DNA of 46,810 nucleotides from an uncultured archaeon. Its GTDB lineage: Archaea > Thermoplasmatota > Penumbrarchaeia > JASLWR01. Both the position numbers and the translations under genes were made by a program. The notes under the pieces are model-generated. The model was given only the letters and a program-made list of their open reading frames with translations. It was not told the origin of the DNA and did not search any database. Positions 1-31,600 of this stretch are shown here, piece by piece. The stretch lies in NCBI GenBank assembly GCA_964342815.1, contig CAYFHS010000034.1:1-46810 (forward strand), written 5' to 3'. The first letter of the stretch is position 1. The number at the start of each line of letters is the position of its first letter.

Positions 1-1
1 T

Positions 2-13433: not shown

Positions 13434-16400
13434 TTAATCCTCTGTCCAGTTCCAATCATCGTCATTTTCTTCAGCATGTTTCATATCGGTTTTTCCGGTC
13501 TTTGCAACAACGCTGTTTTCAACTCTAAATTCGTAATGATGATCCCCTATGCTATTATTTTCATCATTTTTCTCCGTCATGTCAAAATCGGTCGTATCGC
13601 TCTCATCTTCATGCTCATCAGTTTCTCCCAACTCTTCCGTATCCATCCTCCTCTGATATTCTTCATAGTCCTCGTCCTCATAATCTTCCACCTCATTCGA
13701 TTCCATCTCCGGATCATCATCTTCATCGTAATCGGTCTGAAAATCCACTTCGTCAGTTTCTTCTCCCGTATCATCTTCTTCGAAGTAATCGGCATCTTGA
13801 TAATCTTCCACTTCATCCGATTCCATCACCAGATCATCTTCTTCATTATAATCGTCCTCAAAATCCACCTCGTCAGTTTCTTCGCCATCATCATCGTAAT
13901 CGCCGTCATGGTAGTCACCAGGGTAATGATCTACCTCATCCATCTCTACGTATTCTTCAACATCATAATACTCATCTTCCTCATAATCGGAGTGTTCAAC
14001 GATATCCCCGGCGCCCCCGATTCCCATATTACCATCATACTCCACTACATTATCGAGACCGTAATAATCAATGTCATCATCATAGGTCGGTACCTCGCTA
14101 TCGTTTATGGTAAAATCGATCCTGTCGCCGGATAAGATCCTCTTTTTAATCTTCTTCTCCGCTTCTCTATACGACTTTTTCACCTCTTTCTCCCTTATCT
14201 TATCCTCGAGGTTCTTCTGTTCATTGATCAATTTCCGGAATCTCGATTTCTTGCTTTGAAATCTAGTCCGAATAAATATTATTAATGCAAAGAGCAACAC
14301 CACGAGAACGCAAACGGACCACAGCCAATAGTCGATGATGAAATCCCAGCTAGCGGCTATCATACCTTCGTTCTCCCCACTCCCGTTATTCTTCTCCGGT
14401 CCGCGCTCCCCCTTTATGACCACAACGTTCAGGTATTGGATATCCGATGCATTGTCATCATCAGTGACCCTAAAAGTTATCTTGAAATCACCGGGTTCGT
14501 CGAATATCTTGCTTATCATCTTTCCCGAAATTATCGTTCCATTGGGAAATATCCACTCGTAACGAAGTTCCGTGATCGGATCGTCATCCGGATCCGTCGT
14601 TCCGACAGATTTGAAAGTAACCTTTTCCCCCTCTTGCACACTTGAGGGATTCCGCACCGCCACTGCCTTGGGTGGAAGGTTCAAAACCTGTATCTGGATT
14701 GTAGCAGGGAGTGAATCCAGGTCCCGGGAATCCGTAACCACGAGGGATACCGTATAATTCATATCATCCTGAAACTTGTGCGGTGTCGCGTTGCTATCCG
14801 ACGATTCAAAAATCTCCCCGTCACCAAAATCCCACGTGTATTTCACGATCTCGGTCCCGTCAGGAGAATAGGAGCCAACAGGAGAAAATGTGATGAGTGA
14901 TTCAACTGAAATGAACTCGGTAGTAAAAAAGGGAGGTGCTATATGAGAGATTGGTCTCTTTGGGGGTGGAGGAGGTTCCATTACTTCGAGCGTCAGATTA
15001 GATGAATTGTAGCTTACTCTGTCATACCCGTCCCGAACCTTGCAGAATGGAAAGAACATTCCTGTCTGATTATAGGTATGCACCACTTCCGATTCGTCTA
15101 CCCATCCGGTATTATTACCGTCACCAAAATAATATTGATACTGAATCTCCGGAGTGCCTGTTGTGGAGCCCGATGCGTTGAAAATAACACTCTCACCCAG
15201 TAGGACTTTATTCAAGCTCATGGAGAGTTGGGCCGATGGTTTTTCAGGTTCGGGGATTACTTGGACAAATTCCTCATGATAATTATTTGTCTCATTTGAT
15301 TCGTATATCTTGTTCATTGGATCGATTAGAAGACTCAGCATTTGGCCTCCCTGAAATGCTTTCCACTCAAATATCATCTCTATACTTTCATCGTACTCAA
15401 GTACCGGAATGGACCTTTGCTCTTTTACGTTGAGGTCTATGTAAAAATATACCGTTGAATTGTATGCGGGCATCAGATCGAGATTCTTTACCAATACGGT
15501 GGTGGTCATATCCATCCCGTGGTATGGGTCTTCACAACTCTGTTGAAAACTCGTAAGGGCCAGGTCTGAAAAACCGATTTTTAAAATTAGGAATTCACCG
15601 TGTAATATATTTACTTCCTCTTGGAGGTAACCCCATTGTTCTGATTCGTGGTAAATTCGATAAATATTGTAATATGTCGTTCCGCTTTCTTCCTTTGTAA
15701 TATTTATTAACCGCATTTTCACAATACCGTTAGCATCACTTTTCAGGATATATGAAGGGCCTTCACCAATCTCTTCAACGTCTATGGAAACACCCGGTAA
15801 GGATTTGGATGAATAATCCTCGAGAAGCAATTCCATTTCCAATAAAATGTTCAGGGTGGAATCGGTTCCAATGATGGTTTTAGATAAATCTATGGTAATA
15901 TTCAAAGCGTTTACGAGAGCGTGCTGGGTTCTGAAATTCCATCCCTCCGTTACAATGATTGCATCATGAAAGTTAACGTCACTATAATAGATATCCACGG
16001 CATGGGTGCAGTCGCGAACAGCCAGCTTTTCGATATCGACAATTCCACCGCTGCCGTCAATGCTGATCGGGGTTATACAGTTGGAAAAGGTGCAGTAGCT
16101 TAGAAAAATCTCGATATCGGGCTCTTTTATAGTGAGATCGAACCCTTTTTGGCAGTTGTCGAAGGTGGACCCCGTTGCGTTAATGGGGGAATTAAAACCT
16201 GAAATGGGGGAGTACCAATTGTTGAAGGTTAGTTCTTTGAGAATTGCCTCGCTATATCTGAAGTCGTTAACCTGAGCTCCCAAGTTGTTCTCGATGTAAA
16301 ATGTCTCTTCGTTCATGGAGACTGTACAATCGAAGATATCATACCCCTGGCGTGATTCATAATAAATATTTCCTGAGGTGTTGAGGTTAACATTGGCAAA

Positions 16401-17489
16401 TTCCAGGAAAGTGTTGTTGTAAAAAATATTATCGTCCATTATAATACTGGCCCGAGCTCTATCACGATCTACCTCTCGGTTCTCCCCTCTTCTCCCGTCC
16501 GAATCTCCGATAGTTTTGTCAGTACTGTTTGCGAATATACAGTCGCTGACCCTCAAGCCTATTTGAAATTGTATTAAATCCCTTTCGTTCCCCAGGAAGC
16601 TTGTGTTGTGTATTGTAAGGATTTCCGACATCTTGAACAAACCATCGCTGAAAATCGCGTTCTTGTTCCTGTAGAAGGTCGAATTCTTGATCTCACCGGA
16701 AGATGTAGACCTTGTATTCAACCCGTTAATGTTAGAAACTGCGCTGTTTGAAATGAAAAAAACAGAATCGACGAACCTGACGATACCAGTGGAGCTTCCG
16801 TTTATATGCCCTTCCCAGAGCTCGAAAAGCGATCGGTCAATTGTGAAGGTTTCCTCCAGATTTGTAATATAGCTGTTGTTCATGGTCATTTTCCCTAGAG
16901 TAACGCTGTTTCCAGTGACTTGGTTGATTATGGAATTTTCCATTGTGATATTTGAATCAAAACCATATAAACGGATCGGTATATCCGAATCCACAGTAAC
17001 GTTCCTGAAGGTGAGGGAGGAACCGTCTATCACGGTTATGTACGGATCTGTCCCTGCAAAGTTGAAGTAAATTGTGACGTTTTCCATGAGCACATCGGTA
17101 CCATCCGATATGGTAAGGCTCCCATTAATTGTCAGTTTCTTAAGACTGATGTGAATCGAACCGCCCGAATCAAGAATATATGTGGAGGAATGGTTTTCAT
17201 ATTCAAGCGACCCGCCGCAGAGCTGACCGGGTTCTCGCGATAGATTATCCAACCTCTCTTCTATCAATTCCCGGTGGGCTCCAGCCTCAGATACTTTACC
17301 TGGAACATCCGGTATATCGAGTGGATTGTATCGGTTGCCGTTAGGTGGAAAAGTCATCTCCTCTTTGTGCTCATTGAATTCTTTGAAGATGCCTGAGTCC
17401 GCCTCATTATTACGATAGTAGAGAACCATATTCGTAGTGATTAGGGACATTATTAGTAGAATAGCTGTTAATTGTCTTTTCACTGCCAT
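13434..17489 (-). CDS. Single-pass surface protein: parallel beta-helix region, CARDB-like domain, three PKD domains, TM, very acidic tail
   Basis: 1351 aa. N/T/S-rich beta-helix-like repeats, DLALTSF...IDPMNKIYESNETNN (CARDB-like), PKD cores YYFGDG, TWDFGDG and YEWIFP, a TM followed by RTRFQSKKSR, and a D/E/Y-rich C-terminus. Confidence 0.85.
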   Translation of the reverse strand: MAVKRQLTAILLIMSLITTNMVLYYRNNEADSGIFKEFNEHKEEMTFPPNGNRYNPLDIPDVPGKVSEAGAHRELIEERLDNLSREPGQLCGGSLEYENHSSTYILDSGGSIHISLKKLTINGSLTISDGTDVLMENVTIYFNFAGTDPYITVIDGSSLTFRNVTVDSDIPIRLYGFDSNITMENSIINQVTGNSVTLGKMTMNNSYITNLEETFTIDRSLFELWEGHINGSSTGIVRFVDSVFFISNSAVSNINGLNTRSTSSGEIKNSTFYRNKNAIFSDGLFKMSEILTIHNTSFLGNERDLIQFQIGLRVSDCIFANSTDKTIGDSDGRRGENREVDRDRARASIIMDDNIFYNNTFLEFANVNLNTSGNIYYESRQGYDIFDCTVSMNEETFYIENNLGAQVNDFRYSEAILKELTFNNWYSPISGFNSPINATGSTFDNCQKGFDLTIKEPDIEIFLSYCTFSNCITPISIDGSGGIVDIEKLAVRDCTHAVDIYYSDVNFHDAIIVTEGWNFRTQHALVNALNITIDLSKTIIGTDSTLNILLEMELLLEDYSSKSLPGVSIDVEEIGEGPSYILKSDANGIVKMRLINITKEESGTTYYNIYRIYHESEQWGYLQEEVNILHGEFLILKIGFSDLALTSFQQSCEDPYHGMDMTTTVLVKNLDLMPAYNSTVYFYIDLNVKEQRSIPVLEYDESIEMIFEWKAFQGGQMLSLLIDPMNKIYESNETNNYHEEFVQVIPEPEKPSAQLSMSLNKVLLGESVIFNASGSTTGTPEIQYQYYFGDGNNTGWVDESEVVHTYNQTGMFFPFCKVRDGYDRVSYNSSNLTLEVMEPPPPPKRPISHIAPPFFTTEFISVESLITFSPVGSYSPDGTEIVKYTWDFGDGEIFESSDSNATPHKFQDDMNYTVSLVVTDSRDLDSLPATIQIQVLNLPPKAVAVRNPSSVQEGEKVTFKSVGTTDPDDDPITELRYEWIFPNGTIISGKMISKIFDEPGDFKITFRVTDDDNASDIQYLNVVVIKGERGPEKNNGSGENEGMIAASWDFIIDYWLWSVCVLVVLLFALIIFIRTRFQSKKSRFRKLINEQKNLEDKIREKEVKKSYREAEKKIKKRILSGDRIDFTINDSEVPTYDDDIDYYGLDNVVEYDGNMGIGGAGDIVEHSDYEEDEYYDVEEYVEMDEVDHYPGDYHDGDYDDDGEETDEVDFEDDYNEEDDLVMESDEVEDYQDADYFEEDDTGEETDEVDFQTDYDEDDDPEMESNEVEDYEDEDYEEYQRRMDTEELGETDEHEDESDTTDFDMTEKNDENNSIGDHHYEFRVENSVVAKTGKTDMKHAEENDDDWNWTED
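13681..13895. repeat. Imperfect tandem duplication with a 120-bp period (40 aa) in the acidic tail
   Basis: taatcttccac...tcgtcagtttcttc occurs from 13681 and from 13801, encoding GEETDEVDF(E/Q)xDYxExDDxxMESxEVEDY twice. Confidence 0.85.
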
Positions 17490-17799: not shown

Positions 17800-19950
17800 A
17801 TGTTGACCATGGAGAAAGTTTACGAGCGAAGGATTTCAGCAAGATTCGATTTCGAGGAAAGTCCAATAATTAGTGGATATACGAATAGGACGTTGTACGT
17901 TAACCTCTCAGAACGTACCATAAGCGAGAAGATGGTTTCTCAAGGTATGAAGGATGTCTTTACTGGAGGTAAGGGTTTCGACCTTTGGCTCATGTGGAAT
18001 TCCCTTCCCTTCGACCGTACGATAAAGTGGGATGATCCCGAGAATGTTCTCGCCATCGCTTCGGGTCCTCTGGGAGGTACCACCCTATACCCTGGCAGCG
18101 GAAAGAGCATAGTGACCTGTATCTCACCTTTAACTGGTTCTATCATCGACTCCAACGTCGGCGGTTATTTTGGTCCTTATCTGAAATTCTCCGGTTTCGA
18201 TGCAATGGAAGTCCAGGGAAAGGCGGAGGAGGATATGGTAATATTCATAGACGGTCTGGAACGAACCGTAAGAATAGAACATATCGAAGGATTGCCGGAG
18301 GACAGTTATCTGTTGTCCACAGTTCTTTCTGAACTTTATGGGGATGACAAACCTCGGTCGATATCCATTGTATCCGCCGGTCCTGGAGCCGAAAACACGC
18401 TTCTTGGCTGTCTAAATTTTAGTTGGTTTGATCAAGGTAGGAAGATAGTAAGGTATAAACAGGCTGGAAGGGGCGGTATCGGAACGGTCCTTCGAAACAA
18501 GAAAATCGCCGCTATTGTCGTAAGAAGCCCATCCCCGTCGGCGAAAATCAATGCTCCGGCGAATTTCGACTTACTCAAAGAAGTTGGGCGAGCCCACAGC
18601 AAGGAGATCACCAAGCTTGATCCTCTGCAAAACGAGATGGCAAAGATTGGGACGACACATCTTGTTACCATTATGAACGATTATGATCTTTTACCAGTGA
18701 ATAATTTTCAGTACGGATCACATCCCGACGCCCCGTTGATGGGGGCCGAGGCCTATCGGAAAAAATTCCACGAAGGTTATGATGGATGCTGGGTGGGTTG
18801 CACGGTTGCCTGCGCTCACGGTGTAAAGGATTTTGTATGCAGCACTGGTCCGTATAAAGGACAGAAAGTATTCGTGGATGGTCCCGAATACGAGACTGTG
18901 GCGGGGTGCGGCAGCAACTGCGGTATTTTTGATCCCGATCATGTCATCGAGATGAACTTCTACTGTGATGCCTACGGTTTGGACACTATCTCAGTGGGTA
19001 CGGCCACCGCCTTTGCCATGGAATGTTTCGAGAGAGGTCTCATAGACCTGGAGGTCACCGGTGGAATTGATTTGAGATTTGGAAACAAAAAAGCGGCTCT
19101 CGAGATACTTCACCAGATGGCAAGAGGTGAGGGTTTTGGGGCAGTGGTTGGCCAGGGTATAAGGAATATGAAAAAGATATTTGGGGAACCGAATGGGGCT
19201 GATGTAAGCTTGTTACAAGATATTGGAATGGAAGCGAAGGGATTAGAATATTCCGAATATATGACGAAAGAATCTCTTGCTCAGCAGGGAGGATACGGCC
19301 TTGCGCTTAAAGGGCCCCAACACGATGAGGCGTGGCTTATTTTCCTTGACATGGTCCACAATTACATGCCGAGCTTCGAGGAAAAGGCTGAAGCCCTCCA
19401 CTGGTTCCCCATGTGGCGTACTTGGTTCGGACTCAACGGCCTATGTAAACTTCCCTGGAATGACATCGTACCTGTTGACAACAAGGAAACGACGGAGCCC
19501 GCCAAGGTGATGAAACATGTACAATGGTATGCTGACTACTTTGGGGCGGTAACAGGTAATAAGGTAGAACCTTCCGACCTTATCGCCATGAGCGAACGGG
19601 TTTACAACTTTCAGAGAATATTGAATCTTAGGTTGGGTTACGGCCGGAGAGAGCACGATGACATTCCATATCGCTCGGCCGGTCCGGTTACTGAAGAGGA
19701 ATATCTATCCCGCCAAGATAGATATGATGGTCAGTTGAGGGAAGAGCTGGGAATCGAGCCAAATGGAAAATCCACCGGCGAAAAGATCGCCATTCTCAGG
19801 AGATACCGGGAAGGAAGGTACGATAAGTTGAAGGATTCGGTTTACAGACGGAGGGGTTGGACCGATGACGGTGTACCTACGCTTAAAAAAGTGAAGGAGT
19901 TGGGTATCGATTTTAAAAGCGTGGTAAAGGTTATTGGGCCCTATCAATGA
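17800..19950 (+). CDS. aor: Tungsten-type aldehyde:ferredoxin oxidoreductase family protein
   Basis: GPLGGTT...SGKSIVTCISPLTG, AGRGGIGTVL, GCWVGCTVAC, EYETVAGCG, CDAYGLDTIS, GLCKLPW; the start may be ATG 17809. Confidence 0.92.
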   Translation: MLTMEKVYERRISARFDFEESPIISGYTNRTLYVNLSERTISEKMVSQGMKDVFTGGKGFDLWLMWNSLPFDRTIKWDDPENVLAIASGPLGGTTLYPGSGKSIVTCISPLTGSIIDSNVGGYFGPYLKFSGFDAMEVQGKAEEDMVIFIDGLERTVRIEHIEGLPEDSYLLSTVLSELYGDDKPRSISIVSAGPGAENTLLGCLNFSWFDQGRKIVRYKQAGRGGIGTVLRNKKIAAIVVRSPSPSAKINAPANFDLLKEVGRAHSKEITKLDPLQNEMAKIGTTHLVTIMNDYDLLPVNNFQYGSHPDAPLMGAEAYRKKFHEGYDGCWVGCTVACAHGVKDFVCSTGPYKGQKVFVDGPEYETVAGCGSNCGIFDPDHVIEMNFYCDAYGLDTISVGTATAFAMECFERGLIDLEVTGGIDLRFGNKKAALEILHQMARGEGFGAVVGQGIRNMKKIFGEPNGADVSLLQDIGMEAKGLEYSEYMTKESLAQQGGYGLALKGPQHDEAWLIFLDMVHNYMPSFEEKAEALHWFPMWRTWFGLNGLCKLPWNDIVPVDNKETTEPAKVMKHVQWYADYFGAVTGNKVEPSDLIAMSERVYNFQRILNLRLGYGRREHDDIPYRSAGPVTEEEYLSRQDRYDGQLREELGIEPNGKSTGEKIAILRRYREGRYDKLKDSVYRRRGWTDDGVPTLKKVKELGIDFKSVVKVIGPYQ

Positions 19951-20142: not shown

Positions 20143-22242
20143 ATGAGTTTGAAAACACTCAATAAACTAGTAAAGAATTCAAGCAGCTCCAATCCCAAAA
20201 AGAAGGTTCAGGCTCTTGAAGGTTTGGAGGAGCTCTGCAGAGAAAACCCCCAGTACCTTAAGAACATTATGAACCGAATGGTACCGCTTCTGGAGGATAA
20301 TAACGAGAGAGTGAAATTGATCGCTTCGGTTCTGCTTTACCGCCAGTCGGCGGATGATGCAAAGAGCATGACAAAACAATTTCGTCAGTTTCTCAAGATT
20401 CTGGAGTCGGCATTCGATAGTAGGAACCAATCATCCGTCCGGAACTGGAAACCTTATACGAATATCATTCTTACACTGGGAAATATCATTGCCGAATATC
20501 CCAAGTTGGGGGACAAGATCGCTCCTGTCATCACCAGTGTGCTGAGATATCCGCTTTACCGACCTCAGAATCCTACCAAAGATCATGCATTTCTATATGT
20601 GGCTTCCATCAAGGCGTTGGGAAACATTGGGCGTAAACAGCCAGTATATGTGGAGGAATCAATTCCATACATATACAAGAGCCTTGTTGATTCCTACAGG
20701 TTCGATTTCTGGAACAAGTCTACCTCCGACAGAGATAGCAATATGCGTCTTCATGCTGCAAATGCCTTGAAAAAGGTGGGGCGGATCGATCCTTCCCTTG
20801 TAATTCCAAAGATAATCCCTGTATTGAGCGAGAGCGATAAGAACGTGGTCAATGTCGGAAAGGATATCCTTCTCTCTTTTTCCAAGGAAACGAAAGGCAT
20901 CATTCCGGCGCTGGTAAAATCTCTGAATACCGAGAAACAGGAAGACCGGAAACGCGTCACAGAGTTCATAGTGGAACTGGGCCACAAAGACCCGGACCAG
21001 GTTATGCCAATATTAACAAGAGCGCTTTCAGACAGCAGGAGATTTGTACGTATTCAAGCCTTCTCCGCAGTTGGCTCCCTCCTGCCGAAACACCCAAAAT
21101 ATATACCGTCCATCATCCCCGTCCTAATAAAGAACCTGATAAAGGAATCGGACAACGAGATAAAACAATCCATCTCGGACACACTTACCATCATGAGCTT
21201 TTTGAACATCAATATCTTCCAGAAGATCATGCCCTATATCATAAAGTCGCTGAATGATGATTATTATCACGTCCGATGGCGTATGTGCCAGATTATCAAG
21301 AACGTGGGAATATTCAAGCCGCAGTTCGTGGTGGATTCCATACCACACCTGATAACAGGATTGAACGATCCGTATACCCACGTCCAGGCCAAGGCCAAGG
21401 AAGCGCTGGACGCATTGAAAGTGGATAAACTAGAATATCTTCAGGCGATCAAGTGCATAGCAAGCGGCACGAAGGCACTGGAAAAGGCGAAAAAGGGGAG
21501 CATTAGCTGTATGGAAGGACAGAACGCCTTAATGAGCGCCATCAAGGCTGCCAAAGAATACCGTTTCAGAGAATCCATCAGTCTATCCACAACCGCCTTG
21601 GACTTCATGGAAGCGGCGGGAGTACCCTTGTCGAGATATGACGCTGGTTCAAGATATGTAGCCGGACCTTACCTTGGACAGCGAGGTCATCCTATGGGGG
21701 GTTTCGGCCCGGATGGTCTTCCCATACCACCTCCGCCGGACGAAGCAATTCCACTTGGACCGACGGCCGGTCAATCACCTTTTGGTGGAGCCATACTGGA
21801 AGCGAAACAGGTGGAACTGGCAGAATCCAAGGGAGGAGCCAGTATCGACGAGATATTCCTGATGACCACATACGGGATATTGCTGGATCATTATGTGGCT
21901 TCGAAGAAGAGCAAGGTGGACGAGGAGATTCTTGCCGGTATGCTTGTGGCTGTAAAAAGCTTTATTACCGATTCCTTTGACCTGCCGGATGCTGTTGGAG
22001 GCGGGAAAATGGCATTGAACAATATCGATTTCGGCGATTTCTCCGTGGTTATTTCCACGGGACGATATTTGACCATGGTTGCCATCACAACATCCGGGAA
22101 CAGGGATGCTATCTACAAGCACATCACGAGCGGAATCGAAAAGATAGAAACCAAGTTCAATACCAAGTTGAAAACCTGGGACGGAGATATTGACGACCTG
22201 GGTGACCTGCCTGATTATATGAAAGAAGTGATACTGGATTAA
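20143..22242 (+). CDS. HEAT-repeat protein with a helical module, Pro-rich linker and C-terminal longin-like domain (paralog 1)
   Basis: HEAT-type units (VR..A..ALG, IIPVL..DxxxxVR) over about 430 aa. C-terminal 133 aa has a beta-beta-alpha-beta-beta-beta-alpha pattern (IDEIFLMTTYGILL / DEEILAGMLVAVKSF / IDFGDFSVVISTG...TMVAI). The CDS is certain; the fold call is inference. Confidence 0.8.
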   Translation: MSLKTLNKLVKNSSSSNPKKKVQALEGLEELCRENPQYLKNIMNRMVPLLEDNNERVKLIASVLLYRQSADDAKSMTKQFRQFLKILESAFDSRNQSSVRNWKPYTNIILTLGNIIAEYPKLGDKIAPVITSVLRYPLYRPQNPTKDHAFLYVASIKALGNIGRKQPVYVEESIPYIYKSLVDSYRFDFWNKSTSDRDSNMRLHAANALKKVGRIDPSLVIPKIIPVLSESDKNVVNVGKDILLSFSKETKGIIPALVKSLNTEKQEDRKRVTEFIVELGHKDPDQVMPILTRALSDSRRFVRIQAFSAVGSLLPKHPKYIPSIIPVLIKNLIKESDNEIKQSISDTLTIMSFLNINIFQKIMPYIIKSLNDDYYHVRWRMCQIIKNVGIFKPQFVVDSIPHLITGLNDPYTHVQAKAKEALDALKVDKLEYLQAIKCIASGTKALEKAKKGSISCMEGQNALMSAIKAAKEYRFRESISLSTTALDFMEAAGVPLSRYDAGSRYVAGPYLGQRGHPMGGFGPDGLPIPPPPDEAIPLGPTAGQSPFGGAILEAKQVELAESKGGASIDEIFLMTTYGILLDHYVASKKSKVDEEILAGMLVAVKSFITDSFDLPDAVGGGKMALNNIDFGDFSVVISTGRYLTMVAITTSGNRDAIYKHITSGIEKIETKFNTKLKTWDGDIDDLGDLPDYMKEVILD

Positions 22243-22284
22243 AGCGATAACCCGATCGTGAAGCAACATCGGGAGGCCTTATAC

Positions 22285-22629
22285 ATGATGGAGAAGAAAT
22301 CTATATTCACGCCCTTGCTGGAAAAATCTCTGGGAGACGTACTTGATGCCGAAGCTCTGTTGCTGGATGTTTTCAGGGACATGGTCAAGGATGAAGTTAA
22401 AAAATACGTGGTGCGACGGCTGGATGAGGAACCCGAGCTTCGGGCCGAGATCAAGAAGGCCATTTCCATGTACTTCGAGGCAAAGATGAAGGAGATGTAC
22501 GCAGGTGTTCTCCTGGCCAAATCCAGCGCAAAATTGGGTTACGAACTTATTCCGGAGAATCTGAAGAAGGACATGTGGGCGGAAATCGAATCCGAGATGA
22601 CGAAGGTTATCGAGAGAACTTTTAAATAA
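22285..22629 (+). CDS. Small all-helical hypothetical protein between the HEAT paralogs
   Basis: The ORF track starts at GTG 22258, but GGAGG at 22272-22276 favours ATG 22285. Amphipathic helical composition; it resembles a conserved Thermoplasmatota hypothetical family (from memory, unverified). Confidence 0.8.
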   Translation: MMEKKSIFTPLLEKSLGDVLDAEALLLDVFRDMVKDEVKKYVVRRLDEEPELRAEIKKAISMYFEAKMKEMYAGVLLAKSSAKLGYELIPENLKKDMWAEIESEMTKVIERTFK

Positions 22630-22752
22630 GCATGTGTTTCTCTCTTGTATATACACGCTTCAAGGTAAACCTATATCGGTACTTTTCCACATTTTATATG
22701 CAGCTTATCGATTCTGTGAAACAATAAATATAATATCGAATCGATAGGGACA

Positions 22753-24879
22753 ATGTACAACAAATCAATGGTGCAGCTAATGGACTCGAAAAAATTGCAC
22801 AAGCTCGTAAAGACCGCCCGGGGTACGGACCCGGATAAGGTTATCCAGGCACTGGTGGACATTCATAAGGTCTACCAGGAGAGCCCGGAGTCTGCAGGAG
22901 AGCTGCCCGCCTTCATGGTCAAGTATCTGAGAAATGACAGCGAAAGGGTACGGGAGGCCGCTTCCCTTATCATTCTCAACGAGTCCGAAACGAATCCACG
23001 GCTCCTCCTAAGGCAATTCCGAGCATTACTCCAAACTCTGAAATGGGATTTTAACCAGATGAAATCCGGAGAACTGGACCGATTCACTCCGGTGACCAAT
23101 ATTGTCATGGCAATGGGTAATCTGGTTGACCACTATCCTGAGCTGGGAGGACGTCTGGTTTCTTGCATCGCGAGAGTGTTGACGTACCCGCTTTTCAGAC
23201 CGCAGAATCTCAATACCGAGAGAAATCTTCTATACATGTCTGCAATCAACGTCATTGGAAAGATAGGGAACAGTAATCCGATCTACGTGGATAGCTCCGT
23301 CCCGCATATCTACAAATGTCTGGTGGATTCGTTCCGATTCGATTTCTGGAAGAAAGACGCCTCGGAGAGGAAGAACAACATGCGTATGCACGCGTCCAAT
23401 GCCTTGATGATGATCGGTAGTGCGGACCCTATCCGTGTTGTGCCGTGGATCATACCTGCGCTGAATGAAGAGAACTGGGAACTTGTGGAGGAGGTAAGGA
23501 GACTGTTGCTGGGATTTTCGGAAAACCTGAGAACATTTCTGCCCGCCCTTATGTGTTCTCTGGGGACCGGAAAACAGGCGGAGCGGGAGAAGGTGACCGA
23601 GTTCATCATAGAACAGGGGCAGGCAAATCCCCGCTATGTTATCCCGCTTTTGGGGCTGGCACTTTCGGATAAAAGGGCGAACGTGAGATGTCATTCCGCC
23701 TACGCGCTGGGATCTCTTCTCCCGGGGCATGCAGAGTTCATACCATCCATCACTCCCTTGCTTGTTAACGGTCTGGTAAAGGAGACCGACAACGAGGCCA
23801 AGAGACCCATGGCGGACACCCTTACCGTCATCAGCTTCATGAACCTCGGCGTGTTCAAGAACCTCATACCGCAGATAATTCACTGCATGAAAGATGATTA
23901 CCATCTGGTTAGATGGAGAATGGCGCAGATAATAAAGAACATCGGTATTTTCAAACGCCGTTACGTGGTGGATGCCATACCGAACCTGATTACCGGCTTG
24001 GACGATTTTTATATCCCCGTACAGCAGAAGTCCGAGGAAGCCTTGAATGCCCTTAGAGTGGATAAATTCGATTACCTCCGTGCAATCCGGAATATTGCCA
24101 GCGGCACCAAGGCGCTGGAGCATGCCCGTGAGGAAGGAAAAGTGACCACTGAAGCCCAGAATGCTCTTGTGGAATCCATCAAGGCCGCAAGGGACTATGG
24201 ATTCCGCCGGTCTGTTGAACTCTCCTCGGTAGCGCTGGATCTGATGGAAGCCGCAGGTGTCCAGGTATCCAGATACGTGTCTTCACTATACCCCGGAACA
24301 TCGGCGCCGTCTTCAGATATACCGGCCAAACCCATAGGTTACAGGGAAATAGGATCACTACCAATTCCACCGCCTCCTGACGATGCTTTTTCACTTCCGC
24401 TGACCCCGGGCGGGGCGGATGCACCTCCCTTTATACCACCGGCAAAGGAAGTTGAGCTGGCCGGAGCGGCAAGTCTCGGTATAGACGAGGTTTTCCTCAT
24501 GACCACTTATGGGATACTTATCGATCATTACGCGGTATCGAAGAAGAGCAAGGTGGACGAAGAGGTCCTTGCAAGCATGCTGGTTGCCGTTAAGAGCTTT
24601 ATCACCGATTCATTCGACCTACCGGATACCATGGCCGGAGGAAAAATGAATCTCAACAATATCGATTTTGGTGACTTCTCTGTGATAATATCCACCGGGA
24701 AGTTACTGACAATCGTAGCCATTACTACCTCCGGCAACAAGGATTCCATATATGATCATCTTATGCACGGCATCGAAAAGTTAGAGATACGATACCAGGT
24801 AATGCTGAAAACCTGGAACGGTGACATGGAAGCCCTAGGCGACCTTCCGGAGTACATGAAAGAGTTGGTATTGAAGTAA
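22753..24879 (+). CDS. HEAT-repeat protein with a helical module, Pro-rich linker and C-terminal longin-like domain (paralog 2)
   Basis: 708 aa, colinear with 20143..22242 throughout (for example YKxLVDSxRFDFWxK, MRxHAxNAL, FLMTTYGIL). Confidence 0.8.
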   Translation: MYNKSMVQLMDSKKLHKLVKTARGTDPDKVIQALVDIHKVYQESPESAGELPAFMVKYLRNDSERVREAASLIILNESETNPRLLLRQFRALLQTLKWDFNQMKSGELDRFTPVTNIVMAMGNLVDHYPELGGRLVSCIARVLTYPLFRPQNLNTERNLLYMSAINVIGKIGNSNPIYVDSSVPHIYKCLVDSFRFDFWKKDASERKNNMRMHASNALMMIGSADPIRVVPWIIPALNEENWELVEEVRRLLLGFSENLRTFLPALMCSLGTGKQAEREKVTEFIIEQGQANPRYVIPLLGLALSDKRANVRCHSAYALGSLLPGHAEFIPSITPLLVNGLVKETDNEAKRPMADTLTVISFMNLGVFKNLIPQIIHCMKDDYHLVRWRMAQIIKNIGIFKRRYVVDAIPNLITGLDDFYIPVQQKSEEALNALRVDKFDYLRAIRNIASGTKALEHAREEGKVTTEAQNALVESIKAARDYGFRRSVELSSVALDLMEAAGVQVSRYVSSLYPGTSAPSSDIPAKPIGYREIGSLPIPPPPDDAFSLPLTPGGADAPPFIPPAKEVELAGAASLGIDEVFLMTTYGILIDHYAVSKKSKVDEEVLASMLVAVKSFITDSFDLPDTMAGGKMNLNNIDFGDFSVIISTGKLLTIVAITTSGNKDSIYDHLMHGIEKLEIRYQVMLKTWNGDMEALGDLPEYMKELVLK

Positions 24880-24938: not shown

Positions 24939-25994
24939 TCACATTTCAGCCATATTTTTCAATTCATAAAACATAACGTCTGCACTCCGCCACCGATCTC
25001 CTTTTTGCTTTTTAAGTGCCTTCATTACTATCTGATCCAATTTGTGTGGAATGTCCGGATTGATGGTGCTCGGTGCCTCAGGTGCATATGTAAGTATATT
25101 GTTCATCACACCAACCATTTCCTCATCGTGAAAAGGATTTATATTTGTAAGCATCTCGTAAAAAACGATCCCGGTCTGAAAAATATCGGTTTGCCAGTCC
25201 GGTTTGCCGAATTTTCGTTTATCCAATTGTTCCGGTGCGGAATACGCAATGGTCCCCTTCGTTCCAACGGTTTGAGTTACCGACGTGGAAGACATGAACT
25301 TACCAATACCCCAGTCAGTAAGCTTGGCTTTTCCATCTATTGAAAACAGGATATTCTCAGGCTTAATATCACGATGAACGATACCCATCCTGTGGGCGTA
25401 AGAAAGGCCATCGAGTATCTGGATAATGATTTCTAGGGCTTCACCCGTTGAAAGGCAATGTTTCTCTATGATTTGTTTGAGGTTGCCTCCTTCCATCAGT
25501 TCCATGGCAATGAACGGGATCGGTTCCAATCCATTCTCATATAACATAACGATATTTTCGTGATCGAGTTTTATCCACATATCAGCTTCAGATTGGAACT
25601 TCTCAAAAATCGAAGCATCGAGGGTTCCGTCGAGAAATTTTGGTAGTTTTATTGCGACGGTTTTACCATCGTTGTCTTCGGCTCTATAGACCGTAGCAAA
25701 ACCGCCTGAGCCAAGTTTGTGTGTAATAACATATTTTGGTATGGATTCATTGATAGTTGACTTTAGTTCCGTCGTTTGAATTAAAGTGAGTTTTTTTATA
25801 TATGATCTGGAAGGCTCAATGTGGAGTTTTTGGTCTGAAGAATAATTCTCTCTGTCAATGCGTTGAGAAGGAATAGGGATTGTGCGAGGAGGTCTTGGAA
25901 TTGGAGACTCTGAAAACGGTACATCCCCCATTATTGCACCACCGATTTCTCTTGCTTTTTTCAAGAACTCAAATGCGCGTTCGTAATCCGCCAT
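24939..25994 (-). CDS. Hanks-type Ser/Thr protein kinase
   Basis: LGSGGFATVY, VAIK, HENIV, HRDIKPEN, DWG (DFG equivalent), GTIAYSAPEQ, DIFQTG; no TM in this ORF. Confidence 0.95.
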   Translation of the reverse strand: MADYERAFEFLKKAREIGGAIMGDVPFSESPIPRPPRTIPIPSQRIDRENYSSDQKLHIEPSRSYIKKLTLIQTTELKSTINESIPKYVITHKLGSGGFATVYRAEDNDGKTVAIKLPKFLDGTLDASIFEKFQSEADMWIKLDHENIVMLYENGLEPIPFIAMELMEGGNLKQIIEKHCLSTGEALEIIIQILDGLSYAHRMGIVHRDIKPENILFSIDGKAKLTDWGIGKFMSSTSVTQTVGTKGTIAYSAPEQLDKRKFGKPDWQTDIFQTGIVFYEMLTNINPFHDEEMVGVMNNILTYAPEAPSTINPDIPHKLDQIVMKALKKQKGDRWRSADVMFYELKNMAEM

Positions 25995-26001
25995 GTTATC
26001 C

Positions 26002-26493
26002 CTACTTTAAAGCACCTTTTGCTTCATATACCAGATGTTCCATTTCTCTTGTGTCGATTCCCTTATTTTTTAACCGTATTATCAAATCCTGAACATCTAC
26101 GACTTCGCTGATAAACCGTTCTTGTTTGTTAATCTTCTCATTGAGGTTATCGATAAATTTTGCCTTTTCGATATTGGATTTCCTCGTAAGATTAGAATAG
26201 ATTATTATCAAAATTAGATCTACAAATAGGAAACAACCACCGATTAAAATGCATATGCCCGCATCTTCTAAACCATATACATACCCGTCTCCAGATGCCC
26301 AATATTCACTTACAGATATATCCAAGTATACGTACCCTGAATCCACCAAACTTACACCACCTGCAAATATTAGGGATAATGCAACCAAAAAGAAAATCAG
26401 TATTAATACGAATAAGACCTTTCGTCCTTTTCGGAATTTATTCGGAAACGATTGTGGGATTATTAAATCCCCCGGGTGTGGCTGATATTGCAT
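26002..26493 (-). CDS. Two-TM membrane protein with a C-terminal coiled/helical region; possibly the detached N-terminus of the kinase
   Basis: 163 aa with two hydrophobic segments; its stop is 7 nt before the kinase ATG. Confidence 0.75.
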   Translation of the reverse strand: MQYQPHPGDLIIPQSFPNKFRKGRKVLFVLILIFFLVALSLIFAGGVSLVDSGYVYLDISVSEYWASGDGYVYGLEDAGICILIGGCFLFVDLILIIIYSNLTRKSNIEKAKFIDNLNEKINKQERFISEVVDVQDLIIRLKNKGIDTREMEHLVYEAKGALK

Positions 26494-26601
26494 AGTATAT
26501 GCCTCCTACGGAAAAACCTTTTTCAGTAATGTAATTGAATATTTTACTTAAATAAATCCCCTAAAATATTCATTACGAAAATAATTTTTTTAAAAGAATA
26601 A

Positions 26602-27102
26602 TCACGCTCTCATATGAACCGATTTCAGCCTGAATTCAGCCTCGATCTTTGGCACGATCTCATCCCAGATGCACTCAGTGAGGTACCAGTCTGTCAGTTC
26701 TTCCTCCTCGGATTCGGTAACGCCGTATATCTCCGGTCGGTTCAACAGTTCCATGTAGGGCAGAATGAATAATTCGAGTAGTATCCCCAATTTCACCGGC
26801 CAGAGATAAATTTCGATCCCCACCCGTTGTGACTCGAAATCCATTTCACGAAACGAGGGCATATCGATGGGGTACCCGCTCAGGATCATCTGGATGCGTC
26901 CCGGGGGTCTTTTCTGCTTTAGAAGTTCCATTATCTTTTTATTGACTGCGACGATGAGAGTGCCCTTTTCTTCGTTCTTGACATCGAATTTCGTTATGGG
27001 GAAGCCAAGATCTTTTACGAAATCCCTCAGTTTTGGCCCCACCTCGTCGATCTTCTTCCCCTCTATCAGATATCTGCCGTATGGGTATGCGCGTCGTCTC
27101 AT
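26602..27102 (-). CDS. Hypothetical protein
   Basis: 166-aa ATG ORF with backbone-like codon usage in otherwise unassigned space; no motif recognised. Confidence 0.7.
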   Translation of the reverse strand: MRRRAYPYGRYLIEGKKIDEVGPKLRDFVKDLGFPITKFDVKNEEKGTLIVAVNKKIMELLKQKRPPGRIQMILSGYPIDMPSFREMDFESQRVGIEIYLWPVKLGILLELFILPYMELLNRPEIYGVTESEEEELTDWYLTECIWDEIVPKIEAEFRLKSVHMRA

Positions 27103-27284
27103 GGATGTTGTATCGTACTGTTCTTATATAAGTTTTTATACGTTTGATGATTTGGGGTGTATACGTTTTCATCCCTCAAATACTTGATCCATAGGGGCTG
27201 ATTCCGCTGATTTTTATCAAAAAAAGGATAATCAACCTTTGGTATGTAGTGCGCCGTACTATTGAATAACCCAGAGGAAAATCT

Positions 27285-27683
27285 ATGGAGCGGGACTGGT
27301 TCTTTTCTACGATTTGTGTTGACATCGACGGTGTACTTGTTGATACCCGTAATTGCACAATTGGATGCGATTATTCCGGTTATCCCCGGGAGTACAAACA
27401 ACTGGACAGAGAAAGCTGCCCTCTGAAGAAAGGGGCTGTGGAAGCCCTAAAGCAGCTGAAGGATCGGGGCTACAAAGTCGTTCTCTACACTGCTAGAACC
27501 TCCCTGGAGCGTGAGGCCACCGAGAAATGGCTTTCCTCGCACGGGCTAGTTTACGATGAACTGGAAATGAACAAACCAATAGGTTTCATCTATATCGACG
27601 ACCTTGGATATAGATTCAAGAACTGGGATAACACGCTGAATGATATTTTTTCAGACCCCCGTCTTCGCTGTGAAAGGGATTAG
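27285..27683 (+). CDS. Capless HAD-superfamily phosphatase-like protein
   Basis: Motif I CVDIDGV, motif II VVLYTAR, motifs III/IV NKP...YIDD. Confidence 0.85.
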   Translation: MERDWFFSTICVDIDGVLVDTRNCTIGCDYSGYPREYKQLDRESCPLKKGAVEALKQLKDRGYKVVLYTARTSLEREATEKWLSSHGLVYDELEMNKPIGFIYIDDLGYRFKNWDNTLNDIFSDPRLRCERD

Positions 27684-27779
27684 CCAGAATGTTTTTAATG
27701 GTACGGAATAAATTTGAAAACGAATAAAAAACCCTATAATCGAGATGTTCGTTTTAGTCCGGAAAATTCTGAAAAGTTA

Positions 27780-27815
27780 TTTATAGTATAGTAGACTTTA
27801 CACTACTATAAAGTC
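27780..27815. promoter_or_regulatory. Nested inverted repeats upstream of the ABC operon
   Basis: TATAGTAG(27787-94)/CTACTATA(27803-10), TTTATAGT(27780-87)/ACTATAAA(27805-12) and GACTTTA(27794-800)/TAAAGTC(27809-15). Confidence 0.4.
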
Positions 27816-27904
27816 CACATTACCGGGGGCGGGGTGAAAAAGGCGGGCAAATCCGAAAATCGATAGACATATACCCAAGAAAGCATTGAACAGAGGCGAA
27901 CATC

Positions 27905-28606
27905 ATGGCCATAATCAGTTGTAAAAATTTACATAAAACATATGATACCGGAAAAGTGAAAGTACATGCCCTTCGAGGTCTCGATCTATCTATCGGAAAG
28001 GGTGAGATGGTGGCCGTAATGGGCCCCTCCGGATGCGGTAAGACCACTCTTCTGAACTGTCTGTCCGGTCTTGACAGCGTCACCGAGGGAGAGGTCTACG
28101 TCGAGAACATGAAAATAAATGATCTTTCTGACAACAAGAAAACTGAGCACAGGGCAATGAGAATGGGCTTTGTATTTCAATTCTATAATTTACTACCGGT
28201 ACTCTCTGCTCTCGAAAATGTTGAACTGCCGCTTCTGGTGTCCGGTATTAGGCCGAAAGTGGCCAAGGAAAAGGCTCTTGCGGCCCTGGACCTCGTGGGT
28301 CTCAAGGATTGGGCTCCTCATGTACCGGCGGAACTTTCCGGTGGCGAAAGGCAGAGAGTTACCATTGCAAGGGCCCTTGTGAACGATCCGGCTATCGTAT
28401 GGGCTGACGAACCCACCGGCGATCTGGACAAGAAAACATCCAATGGTATAATGGACCTGATGTGCCGTCTGAACAAAGAGAACAAACAAACCTTCGTCAT
28501 TGTGACCCACGATCCGGAAGTTGCTGCCCGGGCCGGAAGGCAGATACGAATGGAAGATGGTAAGATCGTTAAGGATTACAGCAATGGCGGCAGTGGCACG
28601 GATTAG
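27905..28606 (+). CDS. ABC transporter ATP-binding protein (LolD/MacB-like)
   Basis: Walker [10 protein letters not shown], signature LSGGERQRV, Walker [12 protein letters not shown]-loop VTHD. Confidence 0.97.
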
Positions 28607-28615
28607 GGTGGGGTT

Positions 28616-31600
28616 ATGAGTATAATTAAAAAATTCGATCTTGTCACGCCGCTTGTTGTAATTCTTTTGTTGGTTGCCTTTTCAGTGGCAATGTCCGTGA
28701 AACCGGGTTTGCTATTTTATTGGATTATTATTTTTATCTCCATTGGAGCAATCACGATTTCTGTTCTAAAAAATATTGTTCTTTTCAAGGTGGGAACCAG
28801 GAATATATCCCGGCGGAAAGGCTACTCCGTCATAGTGATACTGGGATTGATGATCGGTACCATAATCATCGCCAGTTCACTCATCGTCGGGGACACCATG
28901 GAAAAAATGATTGTGGACCTCAATTACAAAGTGTTCGGTGAAGTGGATGAAGTGATAAACGGGCGGGAGGCGGATGGATCCATGACCTATATCACTGAGG
29001 AAGATTTTATCAATCTCAGCAGGGAGATTCTCGAGATCCCGAACGTGGAAGGGGTTACCGGAGAGGTGGAAGAAACGGTGTCGGTCAAGAACGAGAATAC
29101 CAGTCAGAATGAGCCTAATTACCGCTTGATAGGTTACAATGTCAGCTCGAAAGCTTTCGGCGCCTTTATCAAGAATGGAAAAAAGATGCCCTTTGATATC
29201 AGGGATGATGGAGTCTATGTGGACAAGGATTCCGCAAAGGCTCTTGAGGCGAAGGCTGGACATCGATTGTCTATCATTACCCCCACTGGTATGCACTTTT
29301 TAAACATTAGCGCCATCGTCGATACCACGGGAAGGACCGGCTGGGTAATGGGTCAGGGCATCTATCTCCCTCTAGAGAGAGCGCAATTTTATCTGAATGT
29401 AACTGGGATAAACATCGTCAAGGTTACGAACACAGGCGGCGTGGTTGGCGGTGAAGAACACTGCGAAGGGATCGTCAAGGAACTGGAGAAAGTACTGGCG
29501 GGGGAGGAATATGGAAACCTCGAAGTGACCCGGAGCAAAGCAAAGGAGGTCTCCGCGGGACGAGAAGGGATGTCCCAATTTTCAGATATGTTCTTGGTCT
29601 TCGGCTCATTTTCTATCATTGCCGGTGTCATCCTTATAATAAATATTTTCGTTATGCTTGCCGAGGAAAGAAAAGGCGAAATGGGGATATCGAGAGCCGT
29701 TGGTATGAAACGACTTCATCTTGGCAGAAGCTTTCTGTACGAGGGCAGCGTATACGCCGTTATCTCCGCTGTGATCGGGGCCGCAATGGGGATACTAGTC
29801 GCTTATCTGGTCATCTTTTTTACCGAATCCATATTCTCGAATTTCGGTGAGAACATCAGTTTCAGTATTCTCGATAATTTCAATTTCACGTCACTGAGTA
29901 TCATACAGGCATTCACATTCGGGATGCTCATAACACTCATTACCGTTTCATTCGCCTCGAAAAGGGTGTCCAAGCTCAATATCGTAAGGGCGATCCGGAA
30001 TATTCCCGAACCGAAGATTCCCAAGAAGAGCACCCGAATGCTAATATTCGGAATATCAATTCTTGTTGTCGGGATTGGGTTGATCTTGCTTGGCTTCTTC
30101 GCTCTGAGTTCCTACGAGCTTGCCTCCATTTATGTTGGCATCTCCTTTATTATCATCGGTATAGGCTTCATTATACGGAGGTTTTTGGGTGAACGGTGGG
30201 GAATCTCCCTCTCCTCTGGAGTTCTCCTGATATTCTGGGCCATCCCCGGCTCCTGGTTACATTTAATAGACCTTGTGGATGACCCCGGTGGTATGGAATT
30301 TTTCGTACTATCCGGTATATTCCTCGTATCTTCGGGAGTTATTCTGTTCGTATACAATTCCAGCCAGATACTTGGTGTAATTGTAAAACTCTGGAGCCTG
30401 ACGAACAGACCCACCGCATCTCTGAAGACAGCCACATCTTACCCGATGAAGAACCGCTTCCGCACCGGTATGACCATCTACATGTTCGCCCTCATCATTT
30501 TTACCATTACTGTGATGTACATGATCGTAGGGATCATGAGCTACAACATTGAGAGAACAACACAGGAACAGATGGGAGGGCTTGATATTGTGGGTATCGC
30601 CAATCCCAACAATCCTATCGATAATATTGAAATGAGAATCGAAGAGAATCCATCCCTTTCTTTTGATGAATTCAACGCAGTCTATTCCATTACATCCGGC
30701 TATACATTGCTGAACACTTCCAAGCGAGATCCTGTTGCCGATGAATACATTATTGTTCCATCGGCCATGTACGGATTTGGAAAAAATTTCTCCGCGGAAA
30801 ACCGGTGGACCTTTAATTTGCATTCATCGAAGTACAGGACGGAGCGAGAAGTTTGGGAAGCGGTCTATACGGATTCGAACCTAGTGATTTTGGATGGCAG
30901 TTTTGTGGCAACAGACGATTTCGGTCCGCCAAATCCGGCCAGTCAGGTTGGCGCGAAGATAGGTAAGAATATAACCATGATCGGGGTGAACGGAGAGCCG
31001 ATAAACAAGACAGTAGTTGGAATTCTGGACCAGTTCATTTTTCCGGGTATATTCATGTCGGAAAGGACAATGGAAGAGGACTTCAACCTGACTTTCAAGG
31101 GCATTTTTCTCTTCGATCTCAAGGACGCTGACAAGGGCGAAGAACTTGCAAAGGTTATAGAGCGGGAGTTCAGCATTAATACCATAGCGTTGAAGACCGC
31201 AGTGGAGCAGTTCACGAATATCATGGAGCAGTTCTTCAATCTTTTCACGGCCTTCATGAGCCTGGGTCTCATAGTGGGTATCGCCGGACTTGGAATAATC
31301 ACCCTGAGAGCGGTACACGAACGGCGCCAGGAGATCGGTGTCATGAGATCCATCGGGTTCAAGAGGAGACAAATTACTATGTCCTTCATCCAGGAATCGG
31401 CTTTCATCTCACTTGCAGGGATAATTATTGGTGTTACCCTAGGTGTGATCATCGGCTATGCTATCTGGTATGACGGATTCAAGGTCCTCGATTACGAATT
31501 TTATATCCCCTGGTCGAAAATACTAGTGGTGGCGTTGATAGCATTCGTTTCAACCGCTGTGTTCACCATTCCGCCCAGTTACTCCGCCTCCAAGGTAGAA

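Follow-up and report, generated by a model that had tools for sequence, protein, structure and literature searches.

The 46,810-nucleotide stretch of DNA analysed here (the window) is contig C34 of a genome of 4.35 Mb in 116 contigs, 89% complete, whose source is an uncultured marine archaeon of the phylum Thermoplasmatota, and thus non-Asgard, as the first-pass annotation of this DNA had supposed. On its plus strand lie two genes for HEAT-repeat proteins, named P0001 (paralog 1) and P0002 (paralog 2), each ending in a domain of predicted longin fold. They are considered here together with P0176, a Ras-like GTPase of the same genome. The parts of the two genes are as follows.

20143-22242, plus strand: P0001, whole open reading frame, 699 amino acids (aa).
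20143-21417, plus strand: P0001 residues 1-425, HEAT-repeat solenoid (HEAT, HEAT_2 and HEAT_EZ above the Pfam cut-off, Adaptin_N under it).
21418-21825, plus strand: P0001 residues 426-561, conserved helical module followed by a Pro-rich linker (LPIPPPPD), from the family alignment.
21826-22242, plus strand: P0001 residues 562-699 and stop codon, C-terminal domain of predicted longin fold (AlphaFold 2 (AF2) model, Foldseek and VIA; family profile E 1.2e-45).
22753-24879, plus strand: P0002, whole open reading frame, 708 aa.
22753-24462, plus strand: P0002 residues 1-570, HEAT solenoid, helical module and Pro-rich linker (alignment, BLASTP, Pfam).
24463-24879, plus strand: P0002 residues 571-708 and stop codon, C-terminal domain of predicted longin fold (family profile E 9.3e-45; 71% identity to the P0001 domain).

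Open reading frames, Pfam matches and alignment bear out the first-pass description of two colinear paralogs of about 700 aa, each with HEAT repeats, a helical module, a Pro-rich linker and a C-terminal domain. The two proteins are 51% identical over 704 columns (BLASTP), and the C-terminal domain is better conserved than the HEAT part, as had also been proposed: identity is 71% over the last ~145 aa, close to the 73% of the earlier manual count, compared with 47% over residues 1-500. Across nine family members the mean column identity is 83% for the C-terminal domain and 59% for the whole protein. The family alignment shows invariant and near-invariant columns along the whole helical module and a linker that varies except for its PPP core. 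From the alignment, Met10, at 22780, may be the true start of P0002.

The AF2 model of the C-terminal domain (m9a3be4d2fe17), obtained from 71 aligned family domains (alignment A3), has a predicted local distance difference test score (pLDDT) of 79.9 and the topology β-β-α-β-β-β-α-α; when only nine close sequences were supplied, the pLDDT was 55.6 and the N-terminal strands were not usable. Strands are predicted at residues 9-14 and 19-24, a helix at 33-50, further strands at 66-69, 72-78 and 82-88, a second long helix at 93-110, and short C-terminal helices up to residue 137, which matches the order of two strands, helix, three strands and helices previously read from the sequence. Foldseek searches against the PDB returned AP2 sigma, transport protein particle (TRAPP) subunits, MglB, zeta-COP, Fuzzy and Mon1/Ccz1 with E-values of 1.9e-5 to 5e-4 and a probability of 1.00. 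The highest Z-scores from VIA-align were those of Fuzzy (11.9), Mon1 (11.8), a TRAPP core subunit (11.6), the VAMP7 longin (11.5) and adaptor protein (AP) sigma subunits (10.6-11.0). Superpositions on longins (Fuzzy, Mon1, TRAPP, VAMP7, AP sigma and Sec22; Z 10.5-11.9) have root-mean-square deviations of 2.7-3.6 Å over 113-130 residues and span the whole domain, from model residue 1 or 6 to 138, whereas those on Roadblock structures end at about model residue 113. All 50 listed VIA entries are longin, Roadblock or profilin structures, and the tool's typical best Z without a clear match is 7-8.

Because the model starts with strands and a Roadblock domain with a helix, we read the order of elements as that of a longin; the β hairpin that opens the model and its extra C-terminal helices depart from the Roadblock/LC7 family (PF03259). 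Topology and full-length matches to solved longins thus point to the longin-like fold that had been proposed. Pfam searches gave weak matches to Fuz_longin_1 in 16 of the 71 family members (best E 0.00099) and to Robl_LC7 in three, and the profile of the domain alignment found nothing meaningful among PDB sequences, with a best E of 0.06 to a designed protein. The predicted assignment to the longins holds at the level of fold and not as membership of a curated family.

A profile built from the HEAT-protein tails alone (A2, nine sequences) significantly matches the tails of unrelated surface proteins. In an exhaustive HMMER search of cluster representatives with this profile, the family comprised 2060 representatives at E<=1e-3 and 574 at E<=1e-10, and a related-locus search with A2 returned only metagenome-assembled genomes (MAGs) labelled Thermoplasmatota, Thermoplasmata and 'Methanobacteriota'. 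No Pfam or NCBIfam model covers the family, and we found no description of it in the searchable literature. A transmembrane helix lies upstream of the domain in 103 of the 148 best representatives (at a median distance of 49 residues) and downstream in none of them; in 112 no more than 15 residues separate the end of the domain from the C-terminus, and 17 have two or three copies in tandem. About 70% of the members are cytoplasmic tails of single-pass giant surface proteins, the cytoplasmic location following from the order of signal peptide, ectodomain, transmembrane helix, basic residues and domain. Partner domains are overwhelmingly extracellular and adhesin-like (DUF11, fn3, Big_9, PKD and CarboxypepD_reg, with Laminin_G_3, Kelch and FG-GAP ectodomains as well), and further fusions involve TPR or HEAT solenoids, receiver domains, zinc ribbons and an insertion in a STAND ATPase. 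The self-contained two-paralog system of the first-pass annotation has accordingly given way to a promiscuous module of a very large family.

The source genome alone holds 12 copies of the domain, all matched by the family profile at E-values of 1e-45 to 2e-28, and the P0001 tail by itself finds ten other genes of this genome (E 3e-30 to 4e-6). Seven giant proteins (1371-2059 aa) and one 471-aa protein have a common layout of signal peptide, ectodomain, one transmembrane helix and then the longin-like domain; where Pfam finds domains in their ectodomains, these are Kelch, Laminin_G_3, PKD or β-helix. The domain is also carried by fusions with a receiver domain (222 aa) and with a zinc ribbon (260 aa), by a protein of 505 aa and by the HEAT proteins P0001 and P0002, whose longin-like domain is 26-40% identical to that of the receptor tails.

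Two short elements accompany the domain in some of its carriers. A motif of the approximate form [FIL]D-x-S-x-[IL]H[IL]P ... [VIL]LALPPA[RK] stands 10-15 residues upstream of it in 53 of the 148 members, for example in proteins on contigs C29, C24, C33 and C28 of the source genome, and its place is taken by LPIPPPPD in P0001 and P0002; a short linear motif for docking is one possibility. A RING-like zinc finger (C-x-I-C-M-G-V-V-K ... C-P-x-C), in one to three copies, follows the domain in the cytoplasmic tails of giant surface proteins and in the 505-aa protein (L015, L016, L017 and L018, on contigs C25, C44 and C7), with a zf-RING_2 match at E 4e-6 in L015.

The first-pass annotation had linked longins to small GTPases, and this proved to be its productive part: the family both co-occurs with Ras-like GTPase genes and neighbours them. 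Of 201 genomes sampled evenly across the phylum, 34 contain the domain (E<=1e-5), frequently as 5 to 20 or more copies, and 36 contain Ras-family GTPases (E<=1e-15). Both are present in 33 genomes and neither in 164, with one genome positive for the domain only (two weak matches) and three for the GTPase only (two with weak scores), an overlap that is suggestive and not a statistical proof. The pattern repeats at family level: within the class of the source genome, f1 and f4-f9 have domain and GTPase alike, and the 26 genomes of f2 and f3 have neither. Genomes of the distant family f45 (1.6-2.0 Mb, 99% complete) have exactly one GTPase and one member of the domain family, the latter an FG-GAP/PKD integrin-like receptor in which the domain begins about ten residues after the transmembrane helix. 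Single Rab-like genes have been described in Thermoplasmatales (PMC4915359).

Physical linkage is more telling than co-occurrence. Eight loci in eight genomes were fetched since the match lists for domain and GTPase named the same contig, and in all eight a longin-like gene lies beside a Ras-like GTPase gene. Five architectures are represented: tandem longins, an AAA_16-longin-TPR protein with a TPR-Ras gene, a zinc ribbon-TPR-longin protein and two kinds of giant receptor tail. The search tables hold about seven more domain/GTPase pairs on the same contig within 5 kb. G146, a complete genome of 3.58 Mb with five longin and seven Ras matches, contains one convergent pair about 170 bp apart; by our own estimate the chance of any pair within 1 kb in this genome is ~0.02. 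Two of the arrangements have further features. The tandem two-longin proteins of L025 (G036:C134) and L028 (G050:C2), which directly adjoin the Ras-like GTPase gene, recall multi-longin guanine nucleotide exchange factors (GEFs), and in L029 (G010:C60) and L030 (G032:C122) the domain is inserted in the AAA_16 (STAND) region of a TPR protein of 890-900 aa that is divergent from a TPR-Ras fusion of about 335 aa.

Two further loci of the source genome bear on the HEAT proteins.

Contig C14, about 62225-64005 (L022:242-2022): V4R-DUF835 gene (371 aa), then the Ras/Rab-like GTPase P0176 (181 aa).
Contig C5, about 26279-28720 (L037:3279-5720), minus strand: third HEAT paralog, 813 aa, with a C-terminal DUF835 instead of the longin-like domain.

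P0176 is the only strong Ras-like GTPase of this genome, with 122 bits to PF00071 and the motifs GSPSVGKT, WDVLGQ, NKAD and SAK. Its pairing with a V4R-DUF835 gene is kept in three other genomes of its own family (f1) and in the distant family f45, and in f28 a V4R-only gene stands beside the GTPase gene. V4R is a proposed prokaryotic relative of the TRAPP Bet3 family (PMC2253512), and DUF835 is regarded as an inactivated KaiC-type domain that serves as an output domain on receiver proteins (PMC5847659); DUF835 searched against PDB sequences gave no match. The third HEAT paralog is 37% identical to P0001 over residues 10-484, and P0017, from another metagenome, is also a HEAT-DUF835 protein. 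Two carriers, the HEAT scaffold and the receiver domain, are thus each found with either DUF835 or the longin-like domain. Because DUF835 swaps with the longin-like domain and pairs with the GTPase gene, we place the HEAT scaffolds in the GTPase circuit, on evidence that is indirect but convergent.

On balance we favour the reading that P0001 and P0002 are soluble HEAT scaffolds whose tails belong to a large longin-fold family, as yet without a name, that works with Rab/Ras-like GTPases. By analogy with the characterised longin and Roadblock modules (TRAPP Bet5/Trs23, Mon1-Ccz1 and MglB), the longin-like domain would pair into a dimeric platform on which a small GTPase docks, in the source genome P0176, and the HEAT solenoid would bring in other partners. 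The platform might act on the GTPase as a GEF or a GTPase-activating protein (GAP), or respond to it as an effector. All three HEAT scaffolds, two with the longin-like module and one with DUF835, would probably feed one GTPase circuit.

The pairing was also modelled directly: the tails of P0001 and P0002 were entered with separate alignments, as was P0176, the partner that was scored. The interaction prediction score from aligned errors (ipSAE) was 0.53 for the two tails with P0176 (runs 0.51, 0.53 and 0.57), and the controls scored 0.00, 0.00 and 0.30. Contacts coincide between the runs to at least 96%, and the partner has a pLDDT of 85 or more. In the benchmark, 58 of 80 solved complexes and 2 of 110 mismatched pairs passed the mark, and scores of 0.60 or under account for seven of those 80 and for both mismatches. 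The predicted complex is a small increment on a prior already raised by the neighbourhood data, and its pass may reflect a likeness to solved longin-GTPase complexes.

Several observations weigh against the favoured reading. The complex prediction is weak: without a good prior, a pass at such a score is wrong more often than right. Foldseek gives moderate TM-scores against solved structures (0.45-0.6), and by sequence the domain belongs to no curated longin or Roadblock family in Pfam, the P0001 domain having no longin match at E<=1. The genomes behind the co-occurrence are related and non-independent, so that it may reflect few evolutionary events, and the HEAT-longin fusion itself, found in 7 of the 201 genomes, is a lineage-specific elaboration. 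In the source genome the GTPase gene shares its contig with none of the 12 longin-like genes, and twelve such modules to one GTPase is an odd ratio.

This ratio is better suited to a possible, though in our view doubtful, alternative, in which the module docks without any GTPase: longin-like domains would pair with each other, homotypically or heterotypically, and the HEAT-longin proteins would be hub adaptors that link the tails of about eight surface proteins to cytoplasmic partners, the family's association with GTPases being incidental to P0001 and P0002. Longin and Roadblock domains are typically dimeric (PMC10933270), tandem copies occur in the family, and a mean column identity of 83% within the HEAT fusions against 26-40% to the receptor tails is what would be expected of a hub with many partners. 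Docking alone does not explain why the family and the Ras-like GTPases overlap almost perfectly in their distribution and why their genes are repeatedly adjacent, and with the single domain copy of the f45 genomes heterotypic docking cannot be the basic role. The complex prediction, for its part, scored the pairing with the GTPase and not that of domain with domain.

The first-pass annotation had seen in these proteins an adaptin-like architecture. Its identification of the N-terminal part as a HEAT solenoid stands, with HEAT-type profiles above the Pfam cut-offs in both proteins: HEAT (PF02985), HEAT_2 (PF13646) and HEAT_EZ (PF13513) score 54.2, 53.5 and 52.9 bits in P0001, and HEAT_2 and HEAT score 36.7 and 29.8 bits in P0002, where HEAT_EZ is likewise above its cut-off. 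Adaptin_N (PF01602) reaches 32.4 bits in P0001, under its cut-off of 37, and has no match in P0002. The nearest solved sequences to the HEAT part (phmmer against PDB sequences) are alphaRep, GCN1 and INTS4 (Integrator 4), with no adaptin or coatomer among the matches at E<=0.01. Designs of the alphaRep type derive from prokaryotic HEAT-like repeats. The nearest neighbours of the ESM Atlas model of P0001 are archaeal and bacterial HEAT proteins, gamma-COP following at TM 0.42/0.34, and a Pfam scan of the HEAT proteins found no appendage or mu-homology domain. The HEAT part groups with generic or PBS-type repeats and shows no specific adaptin relationship, an outcome that the first-pass annotation had itself named as refuting its reading, and the adaptin analogy is not supported as homology.

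We therefore consider it improbable that the pair descends from an adaptin-like coat or adaptor ancestor, with a HEAT trunk homologous to those of AP and coat protein complex I (COPI) fused to a sigma/zeta-type longin and with paralogs that heterodimerise like the halves of an AP complex. Such an origin would fit AP2 sigma as the top Foldseek match (E 1.9e-5), Z-scores of 10-11 for AP sigma and mu-N, the sub-threshold Adaptin_N score, gamma-COP among the structural neighbours and the age and retention of both paralog lineages; a HEAT-PBS protein, HVO_1020, has also been proposed to act with a small GTPase in haloarchaeal vesicle formation (PMC10927574). Besides the nature of the HEAT part, the longin domain weighs against this origin: its matches to Fuzzy, Mon1, TRAPP and VAMP7 equal or surpass those to sigma subunits, and it is also carried by receptor tails, TPR proteins and a receiver-domain protein. 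Nor is a heterodimer obligatory, given that one genome of the same family has the paralog-1 type alone. Slightly less probable still is a small-ligand sensor whose PAS/GAF-like pocket would sense a metabolite and regulate the attached scaffold or receptor. In its favour, longin, profilin, PAS and GAF domains are described as having a related core (PMC4917890, in a passage citing De Franceschi 2014), and signalling modules are typically found fused to receiver domains. Against it, the 50 best structural matches include no PAS or GAF domain, conserved pocket residues were not identified and the adjacency to GTPase genes is left unexplained.

The HEAT scaffold family is found in 7 of the 201 sampled genomes, all of the source genome's own class. 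A quick maximum-likelihood tree separates a P0001 type (nine sequences), a P0002 type (four) and a third type, the HEAT-DUF835 proteins forming a sister group with Shimodaira-Hasegawa-like approximate likelihood-ratio (SH-aLRT) values of 91-100. On this tree the duplication predates several genera. Around the pair, the window contains three further genes that bear on the conservation of the locus.

17800-19950, plus strand: aldehyde:ferredoxin oxidoreductase (AOR) gene, from its translation (AFOR_N/AFOR_C genes lie in the same position in L019, the P0009 contig and L033); given for context only.
22285-22629, plus strand: small helical protein of no known family, 114 aa counted from Met; the open reading frame opens at GTG 22258.
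24939-25994, minus strand: Ser/Thr protein kinase (Pkinase E 7e-47), tail-to-tail with P0002 across a 59 bp gap.

The order of AOR, paralog 1 and small gene recurs in four other assemblies, and paralog 2 follows only in the source genome and in one metagenome contig. The conserved three-gene arrangement that had been expected is thus confined to close relatives: G170, a genome of the same family that is 93% complete, has paralog 1 and the small gene but no paralog 2, and a same-genus MAG has a zinc ribbon-longin gene in the place of paralog 2 (4 kb contig). An obligate P0001-P0002 heterodimer was down-weighted on the evidence of G170. We regard the three-gene unit as a local feature and the obligate heterodimer as unlikely.

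The small gene is real and conserved, being 73% identical to its counterpart in L019 and represented by ten protein-database clusters, typically of 113-114 aa; Met at 22285 is a likelier start than GTG 22258. It lies downstream of paralog-1 orthologs in close relatives only (L019, L033 and L036 among them). Distant homologs (48-53% identity) sit between FEN1 and a convergent gene for a highly charged protein of 503-529 aa with repeated CxxC zinc-ribbon motifs (L047, CP070629.1, 1856001-1868342, and L048). At these two loci no HEAT or longin gene is nearby, and the convergent neighbour has no HEAT or longin similarity. With a paralog-1 partner in close relatives only and a place after FEN1 in distant genomes, the small gene lost weight as a candidate for a dedicated third subunit.

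The kinase lies tail-to-tail with P0002, as had been reported, in a neighbourhood that is not conserved: a kinase gene is found about 5 kb upstream in the P0009 contig and none within 8 kb in L019. On the minus strand at 24939-26493 lie the kinase, which has an 87-aa N-terminal extension with a Pro-rich stretch, and, upstream of it, the gene for a 163-aa membrane protein that has two hydrophobic segments and ends in a helical region. A helical module common to the kinase locus and the HEAT proteins was considered and rejected, the best BLAST E being 0.27 for the C-terminus of the membrane protein against P0002 and at least 1 for the N-terminus of the kinase, at most a loose resemblance of pattern. 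Elsewhere in the window, three giant surface-type proteins of 1074, 1523 and 1351 aa with PKD, fn3 and CARDB domains are encoded on the minus strand at 3327-6551, 6926-11497 and 13434-17489; searches of the source genome gave no longin-like domain match in these three. GC content is 0.29 at the start of the window (1-2000), inside an open frame (2-2584, minus strand) that runs off the window, compared with ~0.45-0.5 elsewhere.

Among known systems, TRAPP Bet5/Trs23, Mon1-Ccz1 and Fuzzy/Inturned resemble the present family in predicted fold and topology (Z 11-12), in the coupling to GTPase genes and in tandem multi-longin proteins, and TRAPP does so also through the V4R (Bet3-like; PMC2253512) protein encoded beside the GTPase. 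Unlike these eukaryotic and Asgard longin platforms, the family occurs in Thermoplasmatota, has no detectable longin-family membership by sequence and is mostly found as tails of single-pass surface proteins or as a HEAT fusion, its role as GEF or GAP being a candidate one. Asgard archaea have longin domains, and the GTPase genes of strain MK-D1 as a rule share no operon with genes for Roadblock, longin or TRAPPC3 proteins (PMC10933270), in contrast to the adjacency that is common here. In the MglB-MglA system of Myxococcus and Thermus, too, the small GTPase is prokaryotic and its partner belongs to the same fold superfamily (MglB, Z 9.7-11.0), here as a Roadblock dimer that regulates it; Roadblock partners have been described for MglA (PMC4316618). 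MglB differs in having the N-terminal helix of Roadblock and no C-terminal helices, as opposed to the longin order predicted here, and Pfam Robl_LC7 was not found in the source genome, which is 89% complete. P0176 is called Ras/Rab-like by its PF00071 match (122 bits).

AP and COPI complexes bring together a HEAT solenoid and a longin fold, and their sigma subunits are good structural matches; here both parts are in one chain, with no specific adaptin relationship, appendage, mu-homology domain or evidence of a tetramer. In the bacterial Group 1 Rup GTPases (Wuichet and Sogaard-Andersen 2014, PMC4316618), a Ras-superfamily GTPase is encoded with a protein that combines an uncharacterised conserved domain, a transmembrane helix and OmpA, and a bacterial OmpA-bearing cluster is a structural neighbour of the longin-like model at a predicted TM of 0.79. 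The Rup neighbourhoods belong to other taxa and lack a HEAT fusion, and their domain is likened to ours by structure and description. HVO_1020 and OapA (PMC10927574) offer another non-Asgard archaeal α-solenoid discussed with a small GTPase; compared by description only, HVO_1020 differs in that no longin domain is reported and in that its link is vesicle co-purification and not fusion or neighbourhood. The REC-DUF835 (iKaiC) regulators of Methanomicrobia and Thermoplasmata (PMC5847659) are paralleled by the REC-longin protein of the source genome, and DUF835 and the longin-like domain take the same position on receiver and HEAT carriers. DUF835 is a different, KaiC-derived domain, and its tie to the GTPase comes from the V4R-DUF835/GTPase pair alone.

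The novel elements are the fusion of the domain to a soluble HEAT scaffold, its exchange for DUF835 on that scaffold and the one-GTPase context. Longins, Rab-like GTPases and solenoid scaffolds are regarded as hallmarks of eukaryotic and Asgard trafficking, and here they are found, the longins as a predicted fold, in a different archaeal phylum. The longin-fold family, named in no curated database, is large, reaches 20 or more copies per genome and closely matches Ras/Rab-like GTPases in distribution, often with adjacent genes; the HEAT fusion adds a soluble scaffold version, and the DUF835 exchange ties a second unknown domain to the same circuit. Since Asgard GTPase genes generally lie outside operons with candidate regulators, their partners are hard to assign (PMC10933270), whereas the Thermoplasmatota neighbourhoods name candidates, and through such neighbour pairs the longin-GTPase relationship would be directly testable in vitro. 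Tentatively, and with more reason for caution than for conviction, we suggest that several Thermoplasmatota lineages may hold a complete receptor-to-GTPase signalling or trafficking toolkit of TRAPP, adaptor and Rab folds. It would comprise Rab-like GTPases, a longin-fold platform carried by the tails of giant receptors (integrin-like ones among them), Bet3-like V4R proteins as partners and α-solenoid scaffolds, and the HEAT-longin pair would be a regulator or effector within it, either independent of the adaptor and TRAPP building blocks or sharing ancestry with them. Should the proposed GTPase mechanism prove right, receptor-coupled small-GTPase signalling would be older or more widespread than assumed.

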